Shown here piece by piece: positions 3,973-38,517 of a DNA stretch of 64,000 bases. The DNA comes from Clostridiales bacterium. GTDB lineage: Bacteria > Bacillota > Clostridia > Saccharofermentanales > DTU023. Made by a program: the position numbers and the translations under genes. The notes below the pieces were generated by a model that saw only the letters and a list, made by a program, of their open reading frames with translations, was not told the DNA's origin and searched no databases. Position 1 is the first letter of the stretch. Each line of letters begins with the position of its first letter. The stretch lies in NCBI GenBank assembly GCA_004556925.1, contig SFFI01000003.1, positions 34,187-98,186 on the forward strand. The letters are read 5' to 3'.

Positions 3973-6675
3973 TTATCGGGCAAAATGCTTGTCAATATAG
4001 GAGCCTTGCTCAGTCTTGCGGACCTCCAAGCGTTGGGGAATGAGCTCCTTAAGCTCCTCTACATGGGAGATGAGCCCGCATAGGTAGGAGCCTGAAGAGA
4101 GGTCTAAGAGGGTATTAACCGCCTGGTGCAGGGTCTCGCGGTCCAAACTGCCAAAACCCTCATCAATAAAAAGCGTTTCCAGGGCTAGGCCTCCTTGGCT
4201 GGCTCTTGCCACATCGGATAAGCCCAGGGCGAGGGCCATAGCGGCCTGAAAACTTTCCCCGCCGGAGAGGGTAGACAGCTCACGACTTTGGCCGCTGTAA
4301 CTATCCCACACTTCCATCTCCAGGCCAGTGGTCCGCCGGCGGTCGGCAGGTGCCGAACTGTGGACCAAGCGATAGCGCTGGCCGGTCATTCTAGCCAGGC
4401 GCAGGTTTGCTGCCTCCAAAATCCATTGGAAATAATAACCTTGCACAAAGGTCTCAAAGTCACGGTTGAGACCGCCCTTGAGCTGGCCAGTAGCCACCTG
4501 GTAGAGCTCCAAGAGGTTGCGGAAGTCAAGCTCTAACTTGTCAATATCCTCCTGTAAGGCTTCCAGCTGCAGCTTAAGCCGCTGGTTTTGCGCCTCCCGG
4601 CTCCGGCGTTGGGCCTGGGCATTTTGCACATCTTCCAGCTGGCTGCTAACAGCCTCGCGCGCGGCTTGGACCTGGTTGAGGTCGGGTAGAGTCTCTGGGG
4701 GTTGCCAATTTTTTTGGAAGGCCTTGGCCTCCATCCGCAAGGCCTGAAGCCTGTCTTGGTCTGCTTGGATCTGGCTAGCCTGGGCCTGAAGCTTGCCTTC
4801 TTCCAAACCTAGGGCCTCATAGGCTGCAAGATTTTCTAGGCCAAAACCTTGCAACAGGGAAAGTAGCTGGTCCTCCTGCTTCTGCCATTGACTCTGGGCT
4901 TCTGCTAACTGACCTGCCAAGGAGTCGGCTTGGGCCTTGTAGGTTTGGTCCTGGTCTTCGACCTGGGCTTTTTCAGCTTCCAGCTGTTTTTGGTATTCCT
5001 GCCAAGCCCGCTGGTTTTGCGCCCAGGTCTCTAGGGCTTTTTGGGCCTCTGCCAGGCTGGGATAAGGCAAATCTTTACTCCAGGCCTGGACATTAGCTGT
5101 CACCAGGTCTAGCTTTTCCTGCAGGCGGTCCAGGGCTCTCTGGGCCACAACCAGCGCTTGGGCATCTTCTTTGGCTTGTCGTTCCAATTCTTGCCGGCCC
5201 GGAATTTCCCCCTCCTTCCGCAGGAGGATCTCCCCTTCTCCATACTCGCCGCTGGCGGGCTGAGGGTGGTGAATAGACCCGCAGACCGGGCAAGGCTCTC
5301 CCTCCTTGAGGCTTGCAGCCAAGAGCCTGGCCTGGTGGGCCAAGTCGGACAGGCGCTGGGCTTCCTGAGCCTGCCAAGCTGCCCAGGCCTCAGCGGATTC
5401 TTCAGCCTGAGCTTGGACCTCCCGATAACATTTTTTCTGCTGCTTAAGCTCCTTTTGTACGGCCTTCACGGCCGCTTGCTCAGCGGCCAGTTTTTCATAT
5501 TGTCCCAAGCTGGCCTGCAAGAGTTGGGCTTTTTGGGCCTGGTCCTGCCGAGCCTCTGCCTCCTGTTGAAATGCACTCAGCTGACGGCCTAGTTTGGCCT
5601 TACGAGGCTCCAGGACTTTGGTGTAAGTCTCTTGCAAATGCTTTTGGGCCTCAAGCAAGTCATCCCAACGGCCCTTGGCCTGGTCATAGTCAGTGCGGCG
5701 AGCAGTCACCTTGGCCAAAAGGTCTAGGTCCCGAGTCAGGCGCTGGTTTTTCTGGGCTAAGCCTGGGGCGGCTTGTTCTGCAAGGGCCAAGTCATGCTGA
5801 AGTGTGGCCCAGCGTTGAGCAAGCTCTAGGCTTTCCTTAGCCTTGGCGAGTTCCAGGCTTAGCTTGGCCTGCTGGTCCTCTAGGACTTTTTTCTGCGCCG
5901 CTTCCTCCACTGCCATCTCCCTATCGCGTTCTGCTTCTTGGGCCAAGAGGGCTAGGGGGATGGCCAAGTCTAGGGGCTGGTCTGGGCCTTGCTTGCGTAA
6001 GTCCTGCCAGCTTTCGAGGAGGTCGGGCGATACCAAGTCCAGAGATTCCAAAGCGAAACGGGCCTTGGTCCGCGCTTCTTGTAGGTCTTGCTTGGCTTTT
6101 CCCACAAGGTCCCTGAGCCGTGTCTGGAAAAGCTGCAGCTGGTCCGTTTGGAAAATCCGGCGGAGGATATCTGACCGCTCAGAGGAACCTGCCTTGAGGA
6201 AGTTGGAAAATTCGCCCTGGGCCAACATGGAGACCTGTCGGAATTGGTCCACACCAATCCCCAGGATGTTCTGGATCTCCTGGTCGATCTCTTCTTGCTT
6301 GGTCAAAATACGGCCATCCGGTAGCTTGAGGACCTGCTCGGCCTGCTGTTTAGTCATGCCCGAGCCAATTTTTTTGGGCCGGTCATAGGCAGGAATACGC
6401 TCAATACAGTAGGTCTTTCCCTGTTGGGTGAACTCCAGCCGGACAAAAGTATCCAGCTGGGGATCGGCCTGGTGAGAGCGCAGGTTGCGCTGCTTGCGCC
6501 AGGTTCCAGAAGCCTGACCAAAAAGAGCAAAACTCAGGGCGTCAAAAATGCTGGTCTTGCCCGCCCCGGTGGGGCCAGAAATCAAAAAGAGGCCAGAGTC
6601 TAGGTCCCTAAAGTCCACCGTCTGCTGGTCAACAAAGGGGCCAAAAGCTTGCAGGGTCAAAACGAGGGGTCGCAT
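3973..6675 (-). CDS. sbcC: DNA double-strand break repair ATPase SbcC (Rad50-like)
   Basis: 900 aa. Walker A GPTGAGKTS, very long Q/E/A/L-rich coiled coil with a central CPVCGS zinc hook, C-terminal LSGGESF signature and FIDEGFGSLD Walker B. Overlaps sbcD by 19 nt. Confidence 0.85.
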   Translation of the reverse strand: MRPLVLTLQAFGPFVDQQTVDFRDLDSGLFLISGPTGAGKTSIFDALSFALFGQASGTWRKQRNLRSHQADPQLDTFVRLEFTQQGKTYCIERIPAYDRPKKIGSGMTKQQAEQVLKLPDGRILTKQEEIDQEIQNILGIGVDQFRQVSMLAQGEFSNFLKAGSSERSDILRRIFQTDQLQLFQTRLRDLVGKAKQDLQEARTKARFALESLDLVSPDLLESWQDLRKQGPDQPLDLAIPLALLAQEAERDREMAVEEAAQKKVLEDQQAKLSLELAKAKESLELAQRWATLQHDLALAEQAAPGLAQKNQRLTRDLDLLAKVTARRTDYDQAKGRWDDLLEAQKHLQETYTKVLEPRKAKLGRQLSAFQQEAEARQDQAQKAQLLQASLGQYEKLAAEQAAVKAVQKELKQQKKCYREVQAQAEESAEAWAAWQAQEAQRLSDLAHQARLLAASLKEGEPCPVCGSIHHPQPASGEYGEGEILLRKEGEIPGRQELERQAKEDAQALVVAQRALDRLQEKLDLVTANVQAWSKDLPYPSLAEAQKALETWAQNQRAWQEYQKQLEAEKAQVEDQDQTYKAQADSLAGQLAEAQSQWQKQEDQLLSLLQGFGLENLAAYEALGLEEGKLQAQASQIQADQDRLQALRMEAKAFQKNWQPPETLPDLNQVQAAREAVSSQLEDVQNAQAQRRSREAQNQRLKLQLEALQEDIDKLELDFRNLLELYQVATGQLKGGLNRDFETFVQGYYFQWILEAANLRLARMTGQRYRLVHSSAPADRRRTTGLEMEVWDSYSGQSRELSTLSGGESFQAAMALALGLSDVARASQGGLALETLFIDEGFGSLDRETLHQAVNTLLDLSSGSYLCGLISHVEELKELIPQRLEVRKTEQGSYIDKHFAR

Positions 6676-18037: not shown

Positions 18038-18216
18038 TCTCTTACCTCCTTATGTATTTAAATACCCCTCTCGCTCACCAGAAAGCGGAGGGGTACACAT
18101 AGTCCACATCTCCACCTCGGCCGGAATGTTTAAGGCAGGGCCTCCGGCTGTCTTAGGCGATCAGGTGTATTTATGAAGTTAAGCTACAAGGCTCGAAGGC
18201 CTGCAGCAGTTGGGGA
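18038..18216 (-). promoter_or_regulatory. ribosomal protein L10 leader (autoregulatory 5' UTR of rplJ-rplL)
   Basis: 179-nt gap between rplA and rplJ. The minus strand contains GCCTAAGACAGCCGGAGG, which resembles the 23S rRNA L10-binding region, and a terminator-like hairpin ACCCCTC-(17 nt)-GAGGGGT followed by ATTTAAAT just upstream of the RBS. Confidence 0.55.
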
Positions 18217-30330: not shown

Positions 30331-31713
30331 ATGAAAGATATGGTGTTGGATACTAAGGAAAAGAGAATCTTGAAGCGTCAATTTTGGGACCTGGCCTACC
30401 CAAGTATTATTGCCTTTACCCTGCAAGGCTTTTACGACATCATCGACATGATGTGGGTCGGCAAAATTTCCAAGGAAGCCATAGCGGGGGTCACCCTTTT
30501 TTCCGTTATCTATGCCCTGTTTGGGGTCTTAAACGAGGTCGCCGGCGCTTCTTCCGTTTCTATGATTTCCCAATCCTATGGCCGCGGGACGGAAGAAAGA
30601 ACGCAAACCATCTCGGAGCAGACGATTTCCTTTAAGGTCGTCCTGGCCATTATTACGGGAACATTGATTTACCTGAGCCTGGACCCTATTCTCAATTGGT
30701 TTTCTTCCGATCCCCTAGTCATCCAAGCCGCTAAAGATTATGGGATTATTCGGACCTTTGCCCTGCCCATCGCTTTTTCTTCTTATTCGGTTAACACCAT
30801 CTTCCGCTGCACGGGCGACTCCAAGACGCCCATGAAGGTTATGCTGATTGCTACAGCCATCAATATGGTCCTGGACCCCCTCCTCATGTTCAACTGTATC
30901 CCCCTAGGTCCCTATGAACTAAAGGGCTTTGGCCTGGGCGTTTATGGGGCCGGCCTAGCTACCGTCATTTCCATCTGCATCTCCTTTGGCCTGGGCTTCT
31001 TCATCCTCGTGACCGGGCGCCGAGATGTAACCATCAGCATGCGAGGGCTTCTCCGCCTGGATAAAGAAATTGACCTTCAACTCCTCTCCATTGGCCTGCC
31101 AGCTGGCGGTCAGCTCCTCATCCGTCAAGCCTTCAACACCCTGCTCATGGGCTTTATCACGTCTTATGGCACTCTAGCCGTCACCATCTTTGGCCTGGGA
31201 ACCAAGCTCGTCCAATTTTCCTTCTCCTCCATGGCAGGCTTCTCTTTTGCTGGCTCCACCATGGTGGGCCACGCCCTGGGCCGCGAACATGTGGAAGAGG
31301 CCTCCTATTTGGCCCGAGTCGCCACGACCATCATTGTGACCATCATCGGGACCATCGCTGGCCTGGCTATGCTCTTTCCCAGAACCTTCCTGGGCTTCTT
31401 TAATACCGATCCGGCTGTCTTAACAGCCGGAAGTCCCATGCTACGCTGGCTTGCTGCCTCCATGATTATCGCCGCCTTTGGGTCCGGTATGCGGATTGTC
31501 TTTTCTGGCTCCGGCTTCAACCGCCCCGTGCTAATCTCCACCATTATCTCGCGCTGGCTAGTCCAACTCCCCCTCATGTACGTTTTCGTCAAAATCCTCC
31601 AAGTCCCCTTGAATACCCTCTGGATCTCTTTCATCATCGCAGAGCTGGCCGACTTGGCCGTCGTTGTCTACTACTTCCGCCGCGGCGATTGGAAGCTGAA
31701 ACGCGTTGGCTAG
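30331..31713 (+). CDS. MATE family efflux transporter
   Basis: 460 aa, 12 predicted TM helices. N-terminus LAYPSIIAFTLQGFYDIIDMMWVGKISKEAIAG is typical of the MATE/NorM family. Confidence 0.85.
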   Translation: MKDMVLDTKEKRILKRQFWDLAYPSIIAFTLQGFYDIIDMMWVGKISKEAIAGVTLFSVIYALFGVLNEVAGASSVSMISQSYGRGTEERTQTISEQTISFKVVLAIITGTLIYLSLDPILNWFSSDPLVIQAAKDYGIIRTFALPIAFSSYSVNTIFRCTGDSKTPMKVMLIATAINMVLDPLLMFNCIPLGPYELKGFGLGVYGAGLATVISICISFGLGFFILVTGRRDVTISMRGLLRLDKEIDLQLLSIGLPAGGQLLIRQAFNTLLMGFITSYGTLAVTIFGLGTKLVQFSFSSMAGFSFAGSTMVGHALGREHVEEASYLARVATTIIVTIIGTIAGLAMLFPRTFLGFFNTDPAVLTAGSPMLRWLAASMIIAAFGSGMRIVFSGSGFNRPVLISTIISRWLVQLPLMYVFVKILQVPLNTLWISFIIAELADLAVVVYYFRRGDWKLKRVG

Positions 31714-31714
31714 G

Positions 31715-31915
31715 GAGTAGCGAAGGCTATGATGCTTTGGTTTTGCGGATTCTCCGGCAAAATTGCAACTAATGGGTGAGCCGCCGGACAAGTTTGCGAC
31801 TAGTGGATGGTTAAAAAGGCAAATCTGCAAGTAATGGGTACTTTAGGCCCTGAAACTCATCCGTTACTTGCAAATTCGTCTGAGAAACCAGGAAACCGAG
31901 ATCAAGGGCAAGATA
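31715..31915. repeat. left inverted arm (arm A) bracketing the AT-rich segment
   Basis: About 80 percent identical to the reverse complement of 35190..35425 over the core. Contains the 16-bp motif at 31763..31778, 31794..31809 and 31825..31840 (direct, 31-bp phasing) and at 31858..31873 (inverted). Boundaries are approximate. Confidence 0.85.
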
Positions 31916-32013
31916 AAGAAGGAGATAAAGAGCAAGTAACACCAATCAAGTGGGTACCGAAATGAAGTGCTTAAGTTGGGACTGAGGCATGTCGCCATAA
32001 AATAATTAATTCT

Positions 32014-33627
32014 TCACTGGCTGCCTATTGCTAGAGTTTTATTATAATTAATATTTGTATGCGATCCATGCTGGACAAAGAAAATGATTTTATCTCTTTT
32101 ACCGATAATTTCATTTACTTTTTGCTTATATAGGCAAGTACCTGCCACATCCAAGCCGGCATCTACCTCATCCAATATAAGAACCGAAGCAGACTCCATG
32201 CGTAAAAATAAAGTTGCCAGTTGAATCCTTTTGCGCTGGCCGAAGGATATATTATTCCCCTCACTCTGAATAGTTTTATGCAGATCCAACTCTTTAATGA
32301 TCTCTAAAGCCTCAGGATCCGCCTCTTGGCTGATGTCTTTACCCGTAAATACACGAAGGTAATTAAGGATAGAATCGGTGATATATCCGTCATTTTGCCC
32401 GATATAGACAATCTCCTGGTTAACGGCAGTCGGATCGTAGACTTCCAGAGATTGATTATTAAGCTTAACATTTCCGCTTAAAGGCTTATACACTCCCTGC
32501 AAAAGCTTAAACATCGTGCTTTTTCCTGCCCCGTTTGGGGCAATCACTTTGATGCAGTCACCCCTCTCAAATTTGAAGTTAATGTTGTCCAACAAATACT
32601 CTGCCCGATCGCCATAGCCAAAACACACATTGATGAACTCTACACTTTCAATCCTTGACAAGCTTTTCTGCCCTGTTTTCAGGGGGAGTTTCCGTAGCTG
32701 ATCAATCTGGCGGAAGGCACCATATGAAGATAAAATTTGAAAATAGAGCTGGTCAATTTTGCTGATGTTCCCGATGACGATATTTGAAATTGACATGATA
32801 AAAACTAAATCGACAAGTGTATTTTGGGGATTAATCGTGATAAAGGCAAACAAAGCAAGGCTAAAAATAGAATTGATATGCCTTAATAAATTCGAGTAAA
32901 AGACTTGTTTATTATCTAGCGCTTTAGCTGTCTGTATAAAATCTTGTATTGCTTCTGTTGTTTTAGCCTGATAATAACCCAATATATTATTGGATTGAAC
33001 CCTATCCATTTGCGAAGAAAAATCTCTGCAAATTGCACTATGGCTTTTCATCTTGCTATTGATGGTTTCAGAAGCCTCTTTCATTATTTCTCGCGTTTTA
33101 TTCGCAATCAAGAGGCCTAAAAGAAATCCTACGGATAATAACACGGCTACGACAATATTATGGAAGGCTGTAATCAGTATAGCCGTAATGACAATCGCCA
33201 AGGAACTGATAAGAGCCGCCGAATGATGTCCAATCACCCGAAAGGCATCTAAGACATCATTATAAATAATATTATATATTTTATCGCGTCCCACTTGATC
33301 AATTTCAGCCCCGTATGTAAATGCTAATCGACTTTCAAGGGTGAGGGTTAGCTGTAAGATATAGTTTCCGCCAAAATCATCCAAGGCCCTGTACCACAAA
33401 ACGTCAATAAGATTCACAAACAGCAGGATGGCTGAATATGAGGCGATACCCACACCGAGAAATAACCATTGATCAGCCTGTAGGCTCAAGGCATCTAAAA
33501 AATGTTTGATCGCAAGCGGGATAATTGCCTGTACCAGCGTATTAATGAATGCCAGCACAAACACTTTCCCAAAAAGCTTGGGATACAAGCAAATGGCTTC
33601 TTTCAAATACTTTATAATCAGCTTCAT
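32014..33627 (-). CDS. ABC exporter half-transporter (N-terminal six-TM domain fused to NBD)
   Basis: 537 aa. Walker A APNGAGKST, degenerate signature ISFGQRKR, Walker B LILDEVDAGLD. Markedly AT-rich compared with neighbouring genes. No N-terminal peptidase domain. Confidence 0.8.
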   Translation of the reverse strand: MKLIIKYLKEAICLYPKLFGKVFVLAFINTLVQAIIPLAIKHFLDALSLQADQWLFLGVGIASYSAILLFVNLIDVLWYRALDDFGGNYILQLTLTLESRLAFTYGAEIDQVGRDKIYNIIYNDVLDAFRVIGHHSAALISSLAIVITAILITAFHNIVVAVLLSVGFLLGLLIANKTREIMKEASETINSKMKSHSAICRDFSSQMDRVQSNNILGYYQAKTTEAIQDFIQTAKALDNKQVFYSNLLRHINSIFSLALFAFITINPQNTLVDLVFIMSISNIVIGNISKIDQLYFQILSSYGAFRQIDQLRKLPLKTGQKSLSRIESVEFINVCFGYGDRAEYLLDNINFKFERGDCIKVIAPNGAGKSTMFKLLQGVYKPLSGNVKLNNQSLEVYDPTAVNQEIVYIGQNDGYITDSILNYLRVFTGKDISQEADPEALEIIKELDLHKTIQSEGNNISFGQRKRIQLATLFLRMESASVLILDEVDAGLDVAGTCLYKQKVNEIIGKRDKIIFFVQHGSHTNINYNKTLAIGSQ

Positions 33628-33819
33628 CTGTTTTTACCTTACCTAGCGACTAGGTTTGACGCTTCATATACCCCGCACTCTGTCAAGTGGACTCTACACC
33701 TGGTGGGCAGAGCTGACCACCCAAAAGTCCTCCTTTGGGCTCTCGGGGACTAGCCATTTATCCTAAGCTTCCACTCCCTATTTCACCTGGAAACTTTGCT
33801 TTATTTACCAGAAGAAAGT

Positions 33820-34245
33820 CTATAGATTTTTATCCCGGTTGTAAACAAACCAGCCACAAGCAAGGAAAGGAATAAGTAGCAAAAAAATTGCAGGTTTTTT
33901 TTCTGCAGAGGAGGTGATAAATAGATAACTAGCAATGCCCATGGCAAGTGTCGAAAACACGAGCAAAAGAAACAAGCTAATCCAAGCTCTTTTCTTTGTT
34001 CTTGCCAGTTTAGCAATTAACAATTGACCTATTAAATTTAAGAGGATTACGCCATAAAAAACGAATAAAAAAAACATCTTATTCTGATACCCTGCCCAGT
34101 TTTGATGACTTTCTTTAATTTCGTAATTAAATTGATAAAGACGGATATCGTGAACAAATAGCATAGATATTAAGGCTGCTCCCATAGCCAGCGCATATTT
34201 TTGCCAGGTATAGCGGAAAAAAGAAAACTTATCTGGGTTATCCAT
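33820..34245 (-). CDS. small four-TM membrane protein (possible immunity/accessory protein)
   Basis: 141-aa ORF with four hydrophobic helices (YALAMGAALISMLFV, MFFLFVFYGVILLNLIGQLLIA, AWISLFLLLVFSTLAMGIASYLFI, PAIFLLLIPFLACGWFVY). The ATG lies 4 nt after the stop of the upstream micro-ORF. Confidence 0.6.
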   Translation of the reverse strand: MDNPDKFSFFRYTWQKYALAMGAALISMLFVHDIRLYQFNYEIKESHQNWAGYQNKMFFLFVFYGVILLNLIGQLLIAKLARTKKRAWISLFLLLVFSTLAMGIASYLFITSSAEKKPAIFLLLIPFLACGWFVYNRDKNL

Positions 34246-34249
34246 ACTG

Positions 34250-34390
34250 TTAAACCATATATATTAGCTGTTTAGTTTCTGTGTTCGGCTGTGAAGGGTC
34301 ATTGGTGGCAAAAACAATCGAAGGTGCAATATAATAAATAGATAAAGTTATAACAAGGGTTAACAAGCAAATTTGTTGGATCTTCTTCAT
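34250..34390 (-). CDS. 46-aa secreted or membrane micro-protein (signal peptide plus 18-aa polar tail)
   Basis: Manual translation gives MKKIQQICLLTLVITLSIYYIAPSIVFATNDPSQPNTETKQLIYMV. RBS GAGGA lies 8 nt upstream of the ATG. Too short for the ORF track. Coding status is unproven. Confidence 0.4.
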   Translation of the reverse strand: MKKIQQICLLTLVITLSIYYIAPSIVFATNDPSQPNTETKQLIYMV

Positions 34391-34545
34391 ATGTAGCATC
34401 CTCATTTGAAATAAATTATATTAATTTTGTTAATAGTATATAACTTTGTTTAAGTGAGCATCAAATGAAAGATGTGCACAGCGTCAGCGCGAACTTCCCT
34501 ACGCTCTCGAACCAAAGCTTTCCGGCTGTGATACTCAAAATAGAA

Positions 34546-34851
34546 CTACGTCAATAAATTCTCGTTGTAAACCTTTAAACCAATGGCCCACATATCGCGA
34601 ACCATCTCACTTGCGACAGCTACCTTTGCGACATTTATTTTCTTGCCCTTAGAAATTAAATGTCGGAATCGCTTATAGTGCCGCATATTACACTTGCGCG
34701 CTTCAGCGTCCACTTCTGGTGAAACTTCATGACCTGTACGCATCGTTTTCATATACAAATCGCATAGGTTCTGACAAACGCGTTTTTGTCCATTCAAGGA
34801 TGTCGTACGCGCTTGGACAGTTATTAAGACGTCCATGAATCTCTTTTCCAT
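34546..34851 (-). pseudogene. C-terminal remnant of an IS110-family (DEDD) transposase
   Basis: 101-aa ORF ending ...YKRFRHLISKGKKINVAKVAVASEMVRDMWAIGLKV, which resembles the conserved IS110 C-terminus (...GK..KVA.VAVARK....W..L). An in-frame TGA lies immediately upstream and no N-terminal catalytic domain is present. Confidence 0.4.
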
Positions 34852-35189
34852 TCATGAGGTCTTTTGCAGATAATGTAATGGATCATGCATGCTGGTCCAA
34901 GGCAATAACAGATGCAAATCCGTCCGTATCATGTATTCTTTCATTGAAGCCCCTCCCTGTTTGCGGCAATTACATCCGCGTGGATTTTTGTTCTTACACC
35001 AAGCGTATTGTTTCTGGCCTGCGTGTCAACAGATAGGGCTTTTCTTTGCTCAGGTGCGGGGTATATCGTCTACATGTAAACAATAATACCTATTCTAAAG
35101 CTAAAGTAAAAAGTAAGTTCCATTACAGGCCATGCTGGCTGGTTAAAGCCTGTGGAAATCGCCAATAGTAGTGAGGACTTTTGGCCTAG

Positions 35190-35425
35190 CTGATGCCTGC
35201 CTTCCCTTCCTATTACTTCGGTTTTCTTAGATTTCGGACAAATTTGCAGGTAATGGATGGGTTTACTCTCAGAAACAGAGGCCAAACCACCCATTACTTG
35301 CTTATTTGCCCGCGTTTCCATCCACTAGCTGCAAACTTGTCCGACTGGCCACCCATTAGTTGCAAAAATGCCAGAAAATTCGAAAATCCAAACTACAACA
35401 GGCTCAGGGCACACACTACTAGCGA
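35190..35425. repeat. right inverted arm (arm B) bracketing the AT-rich segment
   Basis: Reverse-complement homolog of arm A. Motif copies at 35244..35259 (forward) and 35288..35303, 35319..35334, 35350..35365 (reverse, 31-bp phasing). Confidence 0.85.
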
Positions 35426-35513
35426 TATTGACCAAAAATCCGAAAAACCCAACTAGCCCTTCTCTCAAGGAAAGCTATAAGTTAATACAGTCGATGCCAA
35501 TTTATTAATATAA

Positions 35514-35643
35514 ATTTTTGAGGCTTGATTAAATTATGGTCGGGGCGCATGAACTGTCAATGGCGCCTTCGGCGCCGCATAGCGGTCACAGACCATTGAC
35601 AGTTCGTGAAGCTCGGCCTAGAAAGTTAACAAGCCTCAAAAAT
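35514..35643. repeat. 130-nt long imperfect palindrome / hairpin (MITE-like or structured RNA)
   Basis: The outer 14-bp stem ATTTTTGAGGCTTG (35514..35527) pairs with CAAGCCTCAAAAAT (35630..35643). The inner 13-bp stem GAACTGTCAATGG (35551..35563) pairs with CCATTGACAGTTC (35593..35605). Two small GC hairpins lie at the apex. Confidence 0.8.
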
Positions 35644-35768
35644 CTGTGGTCTGTAAGACTTAATTCCTATTGGATTTTACTGAAAGACTAAATGCAACTC
35701 CCCATCCTTAGTGTGAAACTTACTTTTTCACTTTAGCCCTAGTTAATACCCAAGTCGGGCGTACTCAT

Positions 35769-35802
35769 AAAAAGGGCTGCCTCTGTTGGAGGCAGCCCTT
35801 TT
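35769..35802 (-). terminator. intrinsic terminator after ppdK (potentially bidirectional)
   Basis: AAGGGCTGCCTC-(5 nt)-GAGGCAGCCCTT flanked by an A-run and a T-run, about 45 nt after the ppdK stop. Confidence 0.85.
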
Positions 35803-35844: not shown

Positions 35845-38517
35845 CTAGCCTTCGATTCTGTGGCGGCCGTGCTCACGGAAGTCCACGGAGACGTAGTCTC
35901 TGGGTTTCTCAATTTGGGCTTGGGCGGCGGCCAGGATGGCGATGGGCACGCGGTAGGGTGAGCAGGAGACGTAGTCGAAGTTCAGGTCGTGGCAGAGGTG
36001 GATGGATGAGGGTTCACCACCGTGTTCACCACAGATACCCAGATGGATTTCGGGCTTCACTTCTCTAGCCTCTTGTGAGCTGATCTTGACCAGGCGGCCA
36101 ACACCCTTTTGGTCCAGGATGGCGGTTGGGTCGCTCTCGAAGATACCCTTCTGATAGTAGGTATCGAGTACGCGGCCAGCGTCATCACGGGAGAGACCGT
36201 AACCCATTTGGGTGAGGTCGTTGGTGCCGTAGGAGAAGAAGTCTGCGTGCTGTGCGATCTCATCGGAGGTCAGGGCAGCACGGGGAATCTCGATCATGGT
36301 ACCTACCAGGTAATGGAGGTCCTGACCGGCTTCCTTAATCAGCTGGTCAGCCTTGTCCGTGATGATCTTGCGCAGGTATTCCAGCTCCTTGTCTACAGAA
36401 ATTAGGGGGACCATGATTTCGGGATAGACCTTGATGCCTTCTTTTTGAACGTTGAGGGCAGCAGAGATAATAGCCTCTACCTGCATTTCAGCAATCTCGG
36501 GGAAGACTACTGCCAGGCGGCAGCCACGCATACCCAGCATGGGGTTGGCTTCGGCCAGGCCGTGTACGACGCGCTTAATCTCGTCGAGGCTGATGCCCAT
36601 AGCATCGGCAAGTTCCTTCATCTCATTTTCTTCATGAGGCAGGAATTCGTGCAGAGGGGGATCCAGGAGACGGATGGTAACAGGCAGGCCCTGCATAGCG
36701 CGGAAGATGCCTTCAAAGTCGCCTCTCTGGATGGGGAGGATCTTGGCCAGAGCGGCTCTTCTTTCTTCTTCGTTCTTAGCCAGAATCATTTGACGGAATT
36801 CAAAGATACGGTCTTTCTCAAAGAACATGTGCTCGGTACGGACAAGGCCGATACCGCCCGCACCCAGTTCCAGAGCCTTGGCGGCGTCCTTGGGTGTGTC
36901 GGCGTTAGCACGCACGTTCATCTGACGGGTTTCGTTAGCCCAGTTGAGGACTGTGGAGAAATAGCCAGTGATATGTGCTTCTACAGAGGGGATAGCACCA
37001 GCGTAAACTTGGCCAGTGGTACCGTCGATAGAGATGACATCACCCTTATTAAGAGCTAAGTCTTTCAGATAAGCTTTGCCAGCGGCCTCATCGATGGTGA
37101 GGTCGGCACAGCCAGAAACACAACACTTACCCATACCACGGGCCACAACGGCAGCGTGAGAGGTCATGCCGCCACGAGCGGTCAGAATACCTTCTGAGAG
37201 GTTCATGCCTTCGATATCTTCAGCGGAGGTCTCCAGGCGAACCAGGATAACCTTTTTGCCAGCTTCCTTAGCGACCCGGGCTTCTTCTGCGCTGAAGACA
37301 ATTTCTCCGGAGGCGGCACCAGGAGAGGCAGGCAGACCCTTGGCTACAGGCTGGGCCTTCTTTAAGGCAGCTTCATCAAACATGGGGTGGAGGAGGGCAT
37401 CCAGGCTCTGAGGATCGATTTGTTGGAGGGCACGTTCCTTGGAAACCATGCCTTCTTCAACCATTTCTACTGCTACGCGCATGGCGGCTTGGGCGGTACG
37501 TTTACCATTACGGGTTTGGAGGATAAAGAGCTTGGACCGTTCAATGGTAAATTCTAGGTCTTGCATGTCGCCATAGTGTTTTTCCAGGCGCTTGGCGATG
37601 TCAGAGAACTGGTTGTAGATGTCTACGTTCCAGGTCTTCATTTCTTCCAGGTTAATAGGTGTACGAACACCAGCTACAACGTCTTCACCTTGAGCATTAA
37701 TCAAGAATTCTCCGTAGACTTTATTCTCACCGGTAGCAGGGTTGCGGGAGAAGGCTACACCGGAGCCAGAGTCATCACCCATGTTACCAAAGACCATCTC
37801 TTGAACGTTGACAGCAGTTCCCCAGGAGGCCGGGATATTGTGCATTTGGCGATAATAGATGGCACGGGGGTTATTCCAGGACCGGAAGACCGCTTCTACT
37901 GCTTCGATCAACTGCATCTTGGGATCTTGAGGGAAGTCTTCTCCCTTGATTTCTTTATAGCGGGCCAGGGAGGCTTGAGCGACTTTTTCTAGGTCCTCAG
38001 CATCCAACTCGGTGTCTTCGGTAACGCCCGTGGCCTTTTTAGCCTCGTCCATTAAGGCTTCAAATTCATCCTTGTGGACTTCCATGACGACGTCAGAGAA
38101 CATCATGATAAAGCGGCGGTAGGCATCGAAAGCAAAGCGGCGGTTATTGGTCAGCTTGGCTAAGCCTTCAACCACCTCATCATTGAGGCCCAGGTTGAGG
38201 ACTGTGTCCATCATGCCGGGCATAGAAGCACGGGCACCAGAACGGACGGAAACCAGGAGGGGATTATCCTTATCACCCAGGGTCTTGCCGGTCGCAGCCT
38301 CTAACTTGTGGAGATATTCAAAAATTTCCTCTTGAATGCCATCGGAAATCTTTCTGCCGTGGTCGTAATAGGCCATGCAGGCTTCTGTAGAAACGGTAAA
38401 GCCATTGGGTACAGGGAGGCCCAAGCCGGTCATTTCAGCCAGGTTCGCACCTTTACCACCGAGCAATTCACGCATGGAAGCGTTCCCTTCGGAAAACATG
38501 TAAACAAATTTTTTCAT
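35845..38517 (-). CDS. ppdK: pyruvate, phosphate dikinase
   Basis: 890 aa. MKKFVYMFSEGNASMRELLGGKGANLAEM, phospho-His region GGMTSHAAVVARGMG and C-terminal PEP-utilising TIM barrel motifs. Confidence 0.95.
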   Translation of the reverse strand: MKKFVYMFSEGNASMRELLGGKGANLAEMTGLGLPVPNGFTVSTEACMAYYDHGRKISDGIQEEIFEYLHKLEAATGKTLGDKDNPLLVSVRSGARASMPGMMDTVLNLGLNDEVVEGLAKLTNNRRFAFDAYRRFIMMFSDVVMEVHKDEFEALMDEAKKATGVTEDTELDAEDLEKVAQASLARYKEIKGEDFPQDPKMQLIEAVEAVFRSWNNPRAIYYRQMHNIPASWGTAVNVQEMVFGNMGDDSGSGVAFSRNPATGENKVYGEFLINAQGEDVVAGVRTPINLEEMKTWNVDIYNQFSDIAKRLEKHYGDMQDLEFTIERSKLFILQTRNGKRTAQAAMRVAVEMVEEGMVSKERALQQIDPQSLDALLHPMFDEAALKKAQPVAKGLPASPGAASGEIVFSAEEARVAKEAGKKVILVRLETSAEDIEGMNLSEGILTARGGMTSHAAVVARGMGKCCVSGCADLTIDEAAGKAYLKDLALNKGDVISIDGTTGQVYAGAIPSVEAHITGYFSTVLNWANETRQMNVRANADTPKDAAKALELGAGGIGLVRTEHMFFEKDRIFEFRQMILAKNEEERRAALAKILPIQRGDFEGIFRAMQGLPVTIRLLDPPLHEFLPHEENEMKELADAMGISLDEIKRVVHGLAEANPMLGMRGCRLAVVFPEIAEMQVEAIISAALNVQKEGIKVYPEIMVPLISVDKELEYLRKIITDKADQLIKEAGQDLHYLVGTMIEIPRAALTSDEIAQHADFFSYGTNDLTQMGYGLSRDDAGRVLDTYYQKGIFESDPTAILDQKGVGRLVKISSQEAREVKPEIHLGICGEHGGEPSSIHLCHDLNFDYVSCSPYRVPIAILAAAQAQIEKPRDYVSVDFREHGRHRIEG

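Follow-up and report, generated by a model that had tools for sequence, protein, structure and literature searches.

Introduction

Among described repeats the closest analogue in organisation to the sequence reported here, by analogy only, is the BOX element of Streptococcus pneumoniae. Its two end modules, boxA and boxC, are inverted relative to each other and enclose a variable tandem array of boxB (Croucher et al. 2011, PMC3049150). Copies of BOX lie between genes and differ from strain to strain, and their mobilisation is presumed to occur in trans; like RUP and SPRITE elements, they typically cluster with repeats of other families (PMC3049150). The sequence described here is likewise small, non-coding, interspersed and intergenic. 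Its end modules are inverted relative to each other and enclose tandem internal modules that vary in number and order between strains, and it clusters with other repeats. By eye it has no sequence resemblance to BOX, and its host belongs to the Clostridia whereas BOX is found in Bacilli. Furthermore, its internal modules repeat the inner portion of its own terminal repeat, while boxB is unrelated to the ends, and they all lie on one side, such that an asymmetric 3+1 layout results.

With MITEs such as RUP, Correia and Nezha the element shares size, terminal inverted repeats, dispersed intergenic copies, subfamilies, hairpin potential and presence/absence between relatives. It differs from them by its unusually long terminal repeats (~43 nt) with internal tandem sub-repeats and by not being AT-rich; also, neither a target-site duplication nor a parent IS was found. 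Transposon ends with multiple sites are represented by attL and attR of Mu, by the Tn7 ends with 3 and 4 TnsB sites and by the repeated terminal motifs of IS21. Two MITEs can furthermore flank a composite unit, as in integron mobilisation units. REP/BIME sequences consist of imperfect palindromic units of 20-40 bp that have a cognate RAYT (Y1 transposase) gene.

Here we analysed a phased motif array in a 64,000-nt stretch of DNA (the window) together with related loci fetched from other genomes and metagenomes, which are denoted by L numbers. The array occurs in the window as two arms that flank a low-GC island between a MATE transporter gene and a pyruvate phosphate dikinase (PPDK) gene (Table 1).

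A phased motif array in the window

The original prediction described eight phased copies of a 16-bp motif, three direct and one inverted in each of two mirrored arms. We searched the window on both strands for TTGCARSTAATGGRTG, allowing at most 3 mismatches and using 100 shuffles as control. The search provided 12 matches compared to 3.16 ± 1.54 expected, a number that none of the 100 shuffles reached. Eight of the matches, with 0-2 mismatches, are exactly the predicted copies (Table 1), whereas the other four are lone, scattered and carry 3 mismatches each, which corresponds to chance level. The direct copies follow each other at an exact 31-bp step in both arms, whereas the offset of the inverted copy is 33 bp in the left arm and 44 bp in the right arm. 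Taken together the arms constitute a 117-nt inverted repeat with 77% complementarity.

The array is thus non-random and phased, and it has the predicted position-specific variants in common between the arms: site 1 is identical and site 2 reads CTAGTGGATG in each. The accompanying statement that the spacers diverge does not hold for their 3' halves (cGGACAAgtT, ggCAAAt), which are conserved directly upstream of the next motif. The true repeat unit therefore covers ~26 of every 31 bp. For the hairpin of the right arm a single, G-U compatible difference had been stated. Reading of the window sequence confirmed one G-U but revealed a second difference, an A-C mismatch, on the same strand.

Structure of a single element

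When copies were aligned, similarity was found to run outward from site 1 and from site 4, and the two outer extensions are mutually inverted. Each arm is a self-contained, non-coding repeat of ~165-175 bp with its own inverted ends; the left copy measures 164 bp and the right copy 176 bp. The terminal inverted repeats span ~43 nt (consensus TTCGGATTTTCnGATTTTCGGgCAaaaTTGCAACTAATGGGTG) and combine an outer module of the TTCGGATTTTC type with an inner unit of ~26 bp, cGGACAAgtTTGCAAsTAaTGGaTGG. A terminal-repeat profile (nhmmer) gave opposed matches at both ends of every complete copy. Across 9 copies the terminal repeats pair in 77.5% of cells, as opposed to 31-48% in slid registers, and in the MFE fold of the left copy its two terminal repeats pair with each other. 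Within the element, sites 2 and 3 repeat the inner ~26 bp of the terminal repeat in tandem, with a 31-bp period. The layout of three direct sites and one inverted site therefore results from the tandem repetition of this unit behind the left terminal repeat.

Like a MITE, the element is small (under ~500 bp), non-coding and bounded by terminal inverted repeats. Open reading frames of at least 50 aa that overlap copies are only short mechanical ones (52-90 aa), unsupported as genes. The exact termini are uncertain, since between some copies similarity continues 10-20 bp past the terminal repeats; for example, window positions 31725-31918 align with 12854-13046 of L001. The left copy starts 23 bp past the MATE stop codon. 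Just outside the right copy there is a degenerate additional module, 60 bp from site 1, which is similar to the reiterated modules of long arrays (see below).

Table 1. Coordinates of the repeat copies, their sites and the neighbouring features in the window.
Feature	Position	Strand	Remarks
MATE transporter gene	30331-31713	+	
Left copy, subfamily B	31736-31899	+	terminal repeat, 3 direct sites, 1 inverted site, terminal repeat; nhmmer matches 31736-31778 (+, 46.3 bits) and 31899-31858 (-, 36.5 bits)
Left terminal inverted repeat, left copy	31736-31778	+	outer TTTGGTTTTGCGGATTCTCCGGCAAAA module + site 1; nhmmer; pairs with 31858-31899 in MFE fold
Site 1, left copy, TTGCAACTAATGGGTG	31763-31778	+	0 mismatches
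Site 2, left copy, TTGCGACTAGTGGATG	31794-31809	+	internal direct sub-repeat; motif search; weak nhmmer match to inner half of terminal repeat, 31785-31809 (E=0.21, 10.6 bits)
Site 3, left copy, CTGCAAGTAATGGGTA	31825-31840	+	internal direct sub-repeat; motif search, nhmmer 31818-31839
Right terminal inverted repeat, left copy	31858-31899	-	contains inverted site 4 (31858-31873)
Low-GC accessory island	31900-35216	.	between the two copies, inside neither
ABC exporter	32014-33627	-	island gene; Pfam/NCBIfam
IS110 remnant, 101-aa ORF	34546-34851	-	weak match to IS110 transposase C-terminus
Right copy, subfamily A, inverted orientation	35217-35392	-	loop 11 nt longer than in left copy; nhmmer matches 35217-35259 (+, 39.7 bits) and 35392-35350 (-, 36.9 bits)
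Site 4, right copy, TTGCAGGTAATGGATG	35244-35259	+	motif search
Site 3, right copy	35288-35303	-	motif search
Site 2, right copy, CTAGTGGATG variant	35319-35334	-	motif search
Site 1, right copy	35350-35365	-	identical to left-copy site 1
Degenerate extra terminal-repeat module + site (GCTAGTAGTGTGT)	35411-35453	-	just outside right copy; partial nhmmer match 35449-35417 (E=0.11); 2-mismatch core
PPDK gene	35845-38517	-	right arm lies downstream of it

A dispersed family in other genomes

We scanned one genome per species, and additionally metagenomes, with a two-site pattern (13-nt core, 18 N, 13-nt core). Five genome and ~12 metagenome matches were discarded as unrelated perfect tandem repeats, mostly from high-GC genomes. 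The scans found the phased unit of three direct sites and one inverted site again, at single, unlinked intergenic loci of at least 4 Clostridia/Oscillospiraceae MAGs and of metagenome contigs. Under the strict two-site pattern there are at least 4 contigs with copies in one MAG, 2 in another and 2 copies in the window, as well as 3 contigs in one metagenome assembly, such that multiple dispersed copies per genome are present as for MITEs. The family host is an uncultured Oscillospiraceae-like lineage of Clostridia. Contigs end inside copies at L006, L007 and L010, as repeats would be expected to cause.

All copies of the family are intergenic, and judged from the open reading frames they are oriented both ways relative to the neighbouring genes, about evenly. 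A search for transposase or DNA-binding genes beside the arrays had been suggested. All-against-all BLASTP of the flanking ORFs provided no such recurrent neighbour, nor any other except MATE paralogues of 24-27% identity, whose position beside copies we judge to be a coincidence.

The number of modules varies. L013 has a 4+1 arrangement, and L014, L035 and L039 contain up to 7 modules, so that together with the 3+1 units end modules enclose a tandem array of variable length as in BOX. In the three long arrays 31- and 50-bp steps alternate and the whole terminal-repeat module is reiterated; the order of the modules at one locus differs between L014 and L035. A metagenome contig of 1.5 kb (L026) carries at its end, at positions 1-100, a perfect 31-bp tandem array of tccggacaagtaGCAAGTAACGGGTgataag in at least 3 copies, which shows that the 26/31-bp unit of the family can expand as a plain tandem repeat.

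A separate observation concerns L014, where two copies lie ~4 kb apart (110-150 and 4298-4668; also in L039). Between the L014 copies there are an XRE-type HTH gene, a 111-aa ORF that is DUF86/HepT-like by eye, and a gene for a 950-aa membrane protein. L014 and L039 may be a second case of copies around accessory genes; their composition is not clearly deviant.

Subfamilies and common descent

The right arm is 81% identical to the copy at L013, which belongs to another MAG and is the closest among the copies compared, and 73% identical to the left arm. L010, L016 and L017 have 84-88% mutual identity. On the basis of these identities the two window copies are assigned to different subfamilies, and the subfamilies cross genomes.

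The original prediction took the site-specific variants as a sign of selection on protein-binding sites. While the variants are real, they recur in other genomes (CTAATGG at site 1, TAGTGG at site 2, GGAT or GGAA at site 4, and also at site 3), and thus selection between the window arms is not needed as explanation. Position-specific variants are preserved because whole copies of ~170 bp share descent. The accompanying idea of sites phased on one face of the helix does not generalise either: family-wide, same-strand spacings of 31 bp (n=25), 32 bp (n=5) and 50 bp (n=9) are mixed, and the inverted site lies 32-85 bp away. The regularity of three helical turns is a property of the basic 31-bp tandem unit, without being conserved as a constraint.

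Copies at orthologous sites are found in two species in two cases, the left window copy with its counterpart in L018 (sister-species MAG SUG1750; 82% identical), and the pair L019/L050. Since copies are common to the window species and SUG1750 at two loci, these insertions are old.

The MATE-PPDK gap and its island

The island between the arms is a 3.4-kb stretch of 35-43% GC compared to ~55% for the background. Apart from the ABC exporter it contains ORFs of 141 aa and 51 aa that had no family matches and the IS110 remnant; Pfam and NCBIfam searches detected no intact transposase, recombinase or replication gene in it. In each arm its own two terminal repeats face one another, and the island is therefore outside both elements.

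Three fetched loci encode an identical MATE protein. L002 is the same as the window. L001 has the same island, yet its second arm is a direct copy, 90% identical to the left arm, and a 213-bp segment stands in place of window positions 35161-35770. In L003 a radical-SAM gene lies upstream of the ABC gene; the window contains different DNA at this place. In L018 the left arm and the island are present and the right arm is absent, so that the PPDK-proximal site differs among L001, L002 and L018. In L043 (MATE 92% identical) the genes for MATE and PPDK are 750 bp apart, and both the island and the arms are missing. L044 (MATE 86% identical) has type I restriction HsdR and Ser/Thr kinase genes in the same gap (L044 9431-15380). 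The MATE-PPDK gap is a repeat-rich, hypervariable region and a recurrent integration hot spot.

Several further observations were made in this region. The radical-SAM gene of L003 (11207-12580, 457 aa) lies directly upstream of the ABC exporter, which suggests a RiPP-like cluster. The window has in its place 1.45 kb (33639-35091) with the 141-aa and 51-aa membrane-like ORFs and the IS110 remnant, and a perfect 13-bp inverted repeat (33666-33678 / 35054-35066) brackets this replacement. At window positions 35514-35643 we found a 135-nt, near-perfect palindromic hairpin that encloses two small inner hairpins, with an RNA fold of -68.5 kcal/mol (z = -9.9) and no match in Rfam. A homologue is present in L043 (9635-9770) in opposite orientation, and it is absent from L001; this hairpin looks like a second, unrelated palindromic repeat element. 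Another repeat family is built on aaagcctgtggaaatc with small CCTGTG/CACAGG hairpins (L018 2540-3000, window 35145-35165, L001 12805-12830). It forms tandem units of ~120 bp between the MATE gene and the left arm in L018, and single units adjoin the right-arm copies. Downstream of the adenine deaminase gene in L047 (5770-6160) tandem units of ~80 bp with a GGTTGGCA...TGCCAACC hairpin occur, one similar hairpin being found in L018 (6488-6535). The host lineage appears unusually rich in intergenic repeat families.

Presence, absence and the search for a transposase

Empty sites were sought via homologues of three flanking proteins, MATE, adenine deaminase and Hsp20. Empty loci were found at L043, L049 and L053, the latter two in comparison with the filled loci L016 and L019, so that the family has the presence/absence polymorphism of MITEs at orthologous sites. 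The intergenic DNA of the empty loci was too diverged to align, and these relatives provide no base-level breakpoints. The flanks of ~30 terminal repeats, whose termini are not base-exact, contain no consistent target-site duplication; two copies could fit TA as such a duplication.

No autonomous IS or transposon with matching terminal repeats was detected in the window or in ~50 fetched loci (~0.4 Mb). BLAST of the element against plasmid and phage collections gave no match, and viral-contig scans with three patterns provided nothing except one chance match inside a coding region. Literature searches for the motif strings and for MITEs of Clostridia returned primer coincidences only. With no match in Rfam, in phage and plasmid records or in the searchable literature the family seems to be undescribed.

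Some resemblances were followed and abandoned. Likeness to the CodY box, the Spo0A box and parS is partial only and was seen by eye. A CRISPR-like array would have a unit of a 26-bp repeat with a 5-bp spacer and was rejected for that reason. The original prediction had also proposed iterons plus operators, which would call for a neighbouring rep or partition gene and a single locus on each replicon. No rep or partition gene was found, copies occupy many chromosomal loci, and this dispersed, gene-independent distribution excludes an iteron or operator array.

Origin of the elements and alternative explanations

That the arms fall into the class of dispersed repeat elements is near certain. With moderate confidence we favour the more specific reading that each arm is a complete member of an interspersed repeat family of ~165-175 bp, MITE- or BOX-like and non-autonomous, which spreads in trans. 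The sub-repeats are probably transposase-binding sites. As a mechanism we infer that a trans-acting transposase would recognise the terminal repeat and the sub-repeats and in this way spread the non-autonomous element. The number of internal modules would then drift via slippage or unequal crossing-over, and the present copies would be old and decaying. The MATE-PPDK gap also received the low-GC island with the ABC exporter, of which the copies are not the ends. Mobility is favoured by the terminal inverted repeats, the dispersed copies and their subfamilies, the contig ends within copies and the empty orthologous loci. The case is weakened in that no target-site duplication and no autonomous partner were found in the loci and collections searched, and that the empty sites all come from diverged relatives.

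An alternative is a platform selected by the host, similar to BIME/REP, in which the phased 26-bp units are bound by a chromosomal nucleoid-associated or regulatory protein and are kept because they are useful. The main spacing of 31-32 bp is close to 3 helical turns, two species have kept copies at orthologous sites (see above), and conservation is somewhat higher in the cores than elsewhere in the element (column majority 0.92 vs 0.81, where the search pattern itself selected intact cores); a small excess of core conservation would also fit a host-selected binding array. However, in the comparison of the left window arm with its L018 orthologue this excess was not significant (substitutions at 5/52 positions in cores and at 13/63 outside the extended sites). 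The spacing is also not constant, with 50-bp steps being common and the inverted site shifting from 32 to 43 bp core-to-core. Copies have no consistent placement or orientation relative to promoters or genes, slightly more distant relatives are without copies at the orthologous sites, and the terminal inverted repeats and subfamilies point to descent by copying and spreading. With regard to REP/BIME with RAYT, the individual 26-bp units are not palindromic and no recurrent gene family was found near the copies. We consider such a platform rather unlikely.

By analogy to the multi-site transposon ends, the element may instead be a mini-transposon with 3 + 1 sites that arose by internal deletion of an undescribed Mu/Tn7/IS21-type element in uncultured Oscillospirales, pairs of which would capture or exchange accessory islands (ABC exporter, radical SAM). 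Several direct sites of ~20-26 bp lie behind one terminus and fewer behind the other, and a mini-element with a 3-site left end and a 1-site right end would match one arm. In contrast to Mu, Tn7 and IS21, no DDE transposase or ATPase genes were found beside any copy, there are no clear 5'-TG...CA-3' termini and no 5-bp duplication was seen. To our knowledge the sites are also unlike those of Tn7 or Mu. Such an origin appears unlikely to us.

Copies may also act in pairs and promote the capture, inversion or exchange of the DNA between them, either by mobilisation as a composite flanked by MITEs or when a circle with one copy integrates by Campbell-type homologous recombination. This role would be compatible with the interspersed-repeat reading that we favour. 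In L001 the island lies between the direct, 90% identical copies, whose similarity extends ~10-20 bp past the terminal repeats as homologous recombination leaves it. The lack of both island and copies in L043, the different island in the same gap of L044 and the accessory-looking genes between two copies ~4 kb apart in L014 and L039 are consistent with it. On the other hand most copies are solitary, the L039 interval is not compositionally distinct, and the window pair, 73-77% identical and inverted, is a poor substrate for recombination and is without a flanking duplication. Two small elements with terminal repeats around an accessory island do resemble MITE-flanked composite units, but here no duplication surrounds the pair, the pair orientation varies and one carrier has a single copy. 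A capture role of this kind is quite unlikely.

A structured RNA, i.e. a long transcribed hairpin acting as mRNA stabiliser, terminator or small RNA, is very unlikely. The folds are more stable than those of shuffles (z = -3.6, -2.7 and -4.8), though trivially, because the element holds inverted repeats. The helix of sites 3 and 4 is paired in 85% of cells and exhibits recurrent G-U pairs and one inherited compensatory change from AU to GC, in one subfamily. The covariation test that had been suggested across homologous copies gave values not clearly above shuffles: for this helix 32-48 of 500 shuffles equalled the observed value, which is within the range that related unstructured sequences give, and for the terminal-repeat helix covariation matched the shuffles, 80-281 of 500 reaching the observed value. 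Mismatches of the two window copies are G-U compatible, but on opposite strands. The mixed orientation of copies relative to flanking transcription and the lack of predicted promoters and terminators inside copies likewise argue against an RNA. In Rfam the arms had no match at the gathering threshold and a permissive search returned miRNA noise only (E at least 0.5). The only match of the window at the gathering level of Rfam is elsewhere, a ribosomal protein L10 leader (RF00557, 48.6 bits) at 18050-18175 (-).

Largely refuted, and extremely improbable, is the reading that the arms are mirrored multi-site ends (Tn7-, Mu- or IS21-like) of one ~3.6-kb transposon (31763-35365) carrying the ABC-exporter island: the likeness of each arm to such ends stands, the arms form the 117-nt inverted repeat around a low-GC island and L043 is devoid of both, but each arm has opposed terminal repeats of its own, the ends are not always paired and inverted (direct in L001, single in L018, solitary at many unrelated loci), the island contains no transposase genes apart from the 101-aa IS110 remnant, and reading of the sequence revealed no matching flanking duplication at the outer ends.

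Implications

What was found are two independent copies of a MITE/BOX-like interspersed repeat next to an accessory island, thus an object of an ordinary kind and neither a 3.6-kb multi-site transposon nor an iteron array nor an RNA. The interspersed-repeat reading bears on the host lineage in several ways. Units of ~170 bp and clustered repeat families break metagenome assemblies, and the copies mark intergenic sites of high variability at which islands are gained and lost. MAGs of this gut or anaerobe lineage would therefore be assembled and annotated better with a model of the family. The family is also a clear case of bacterial interspersed repeats in which the internal modules repeat the element's own terminal repeat in tandem. 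Its transposase, if found, would show how multi-site ends are read.
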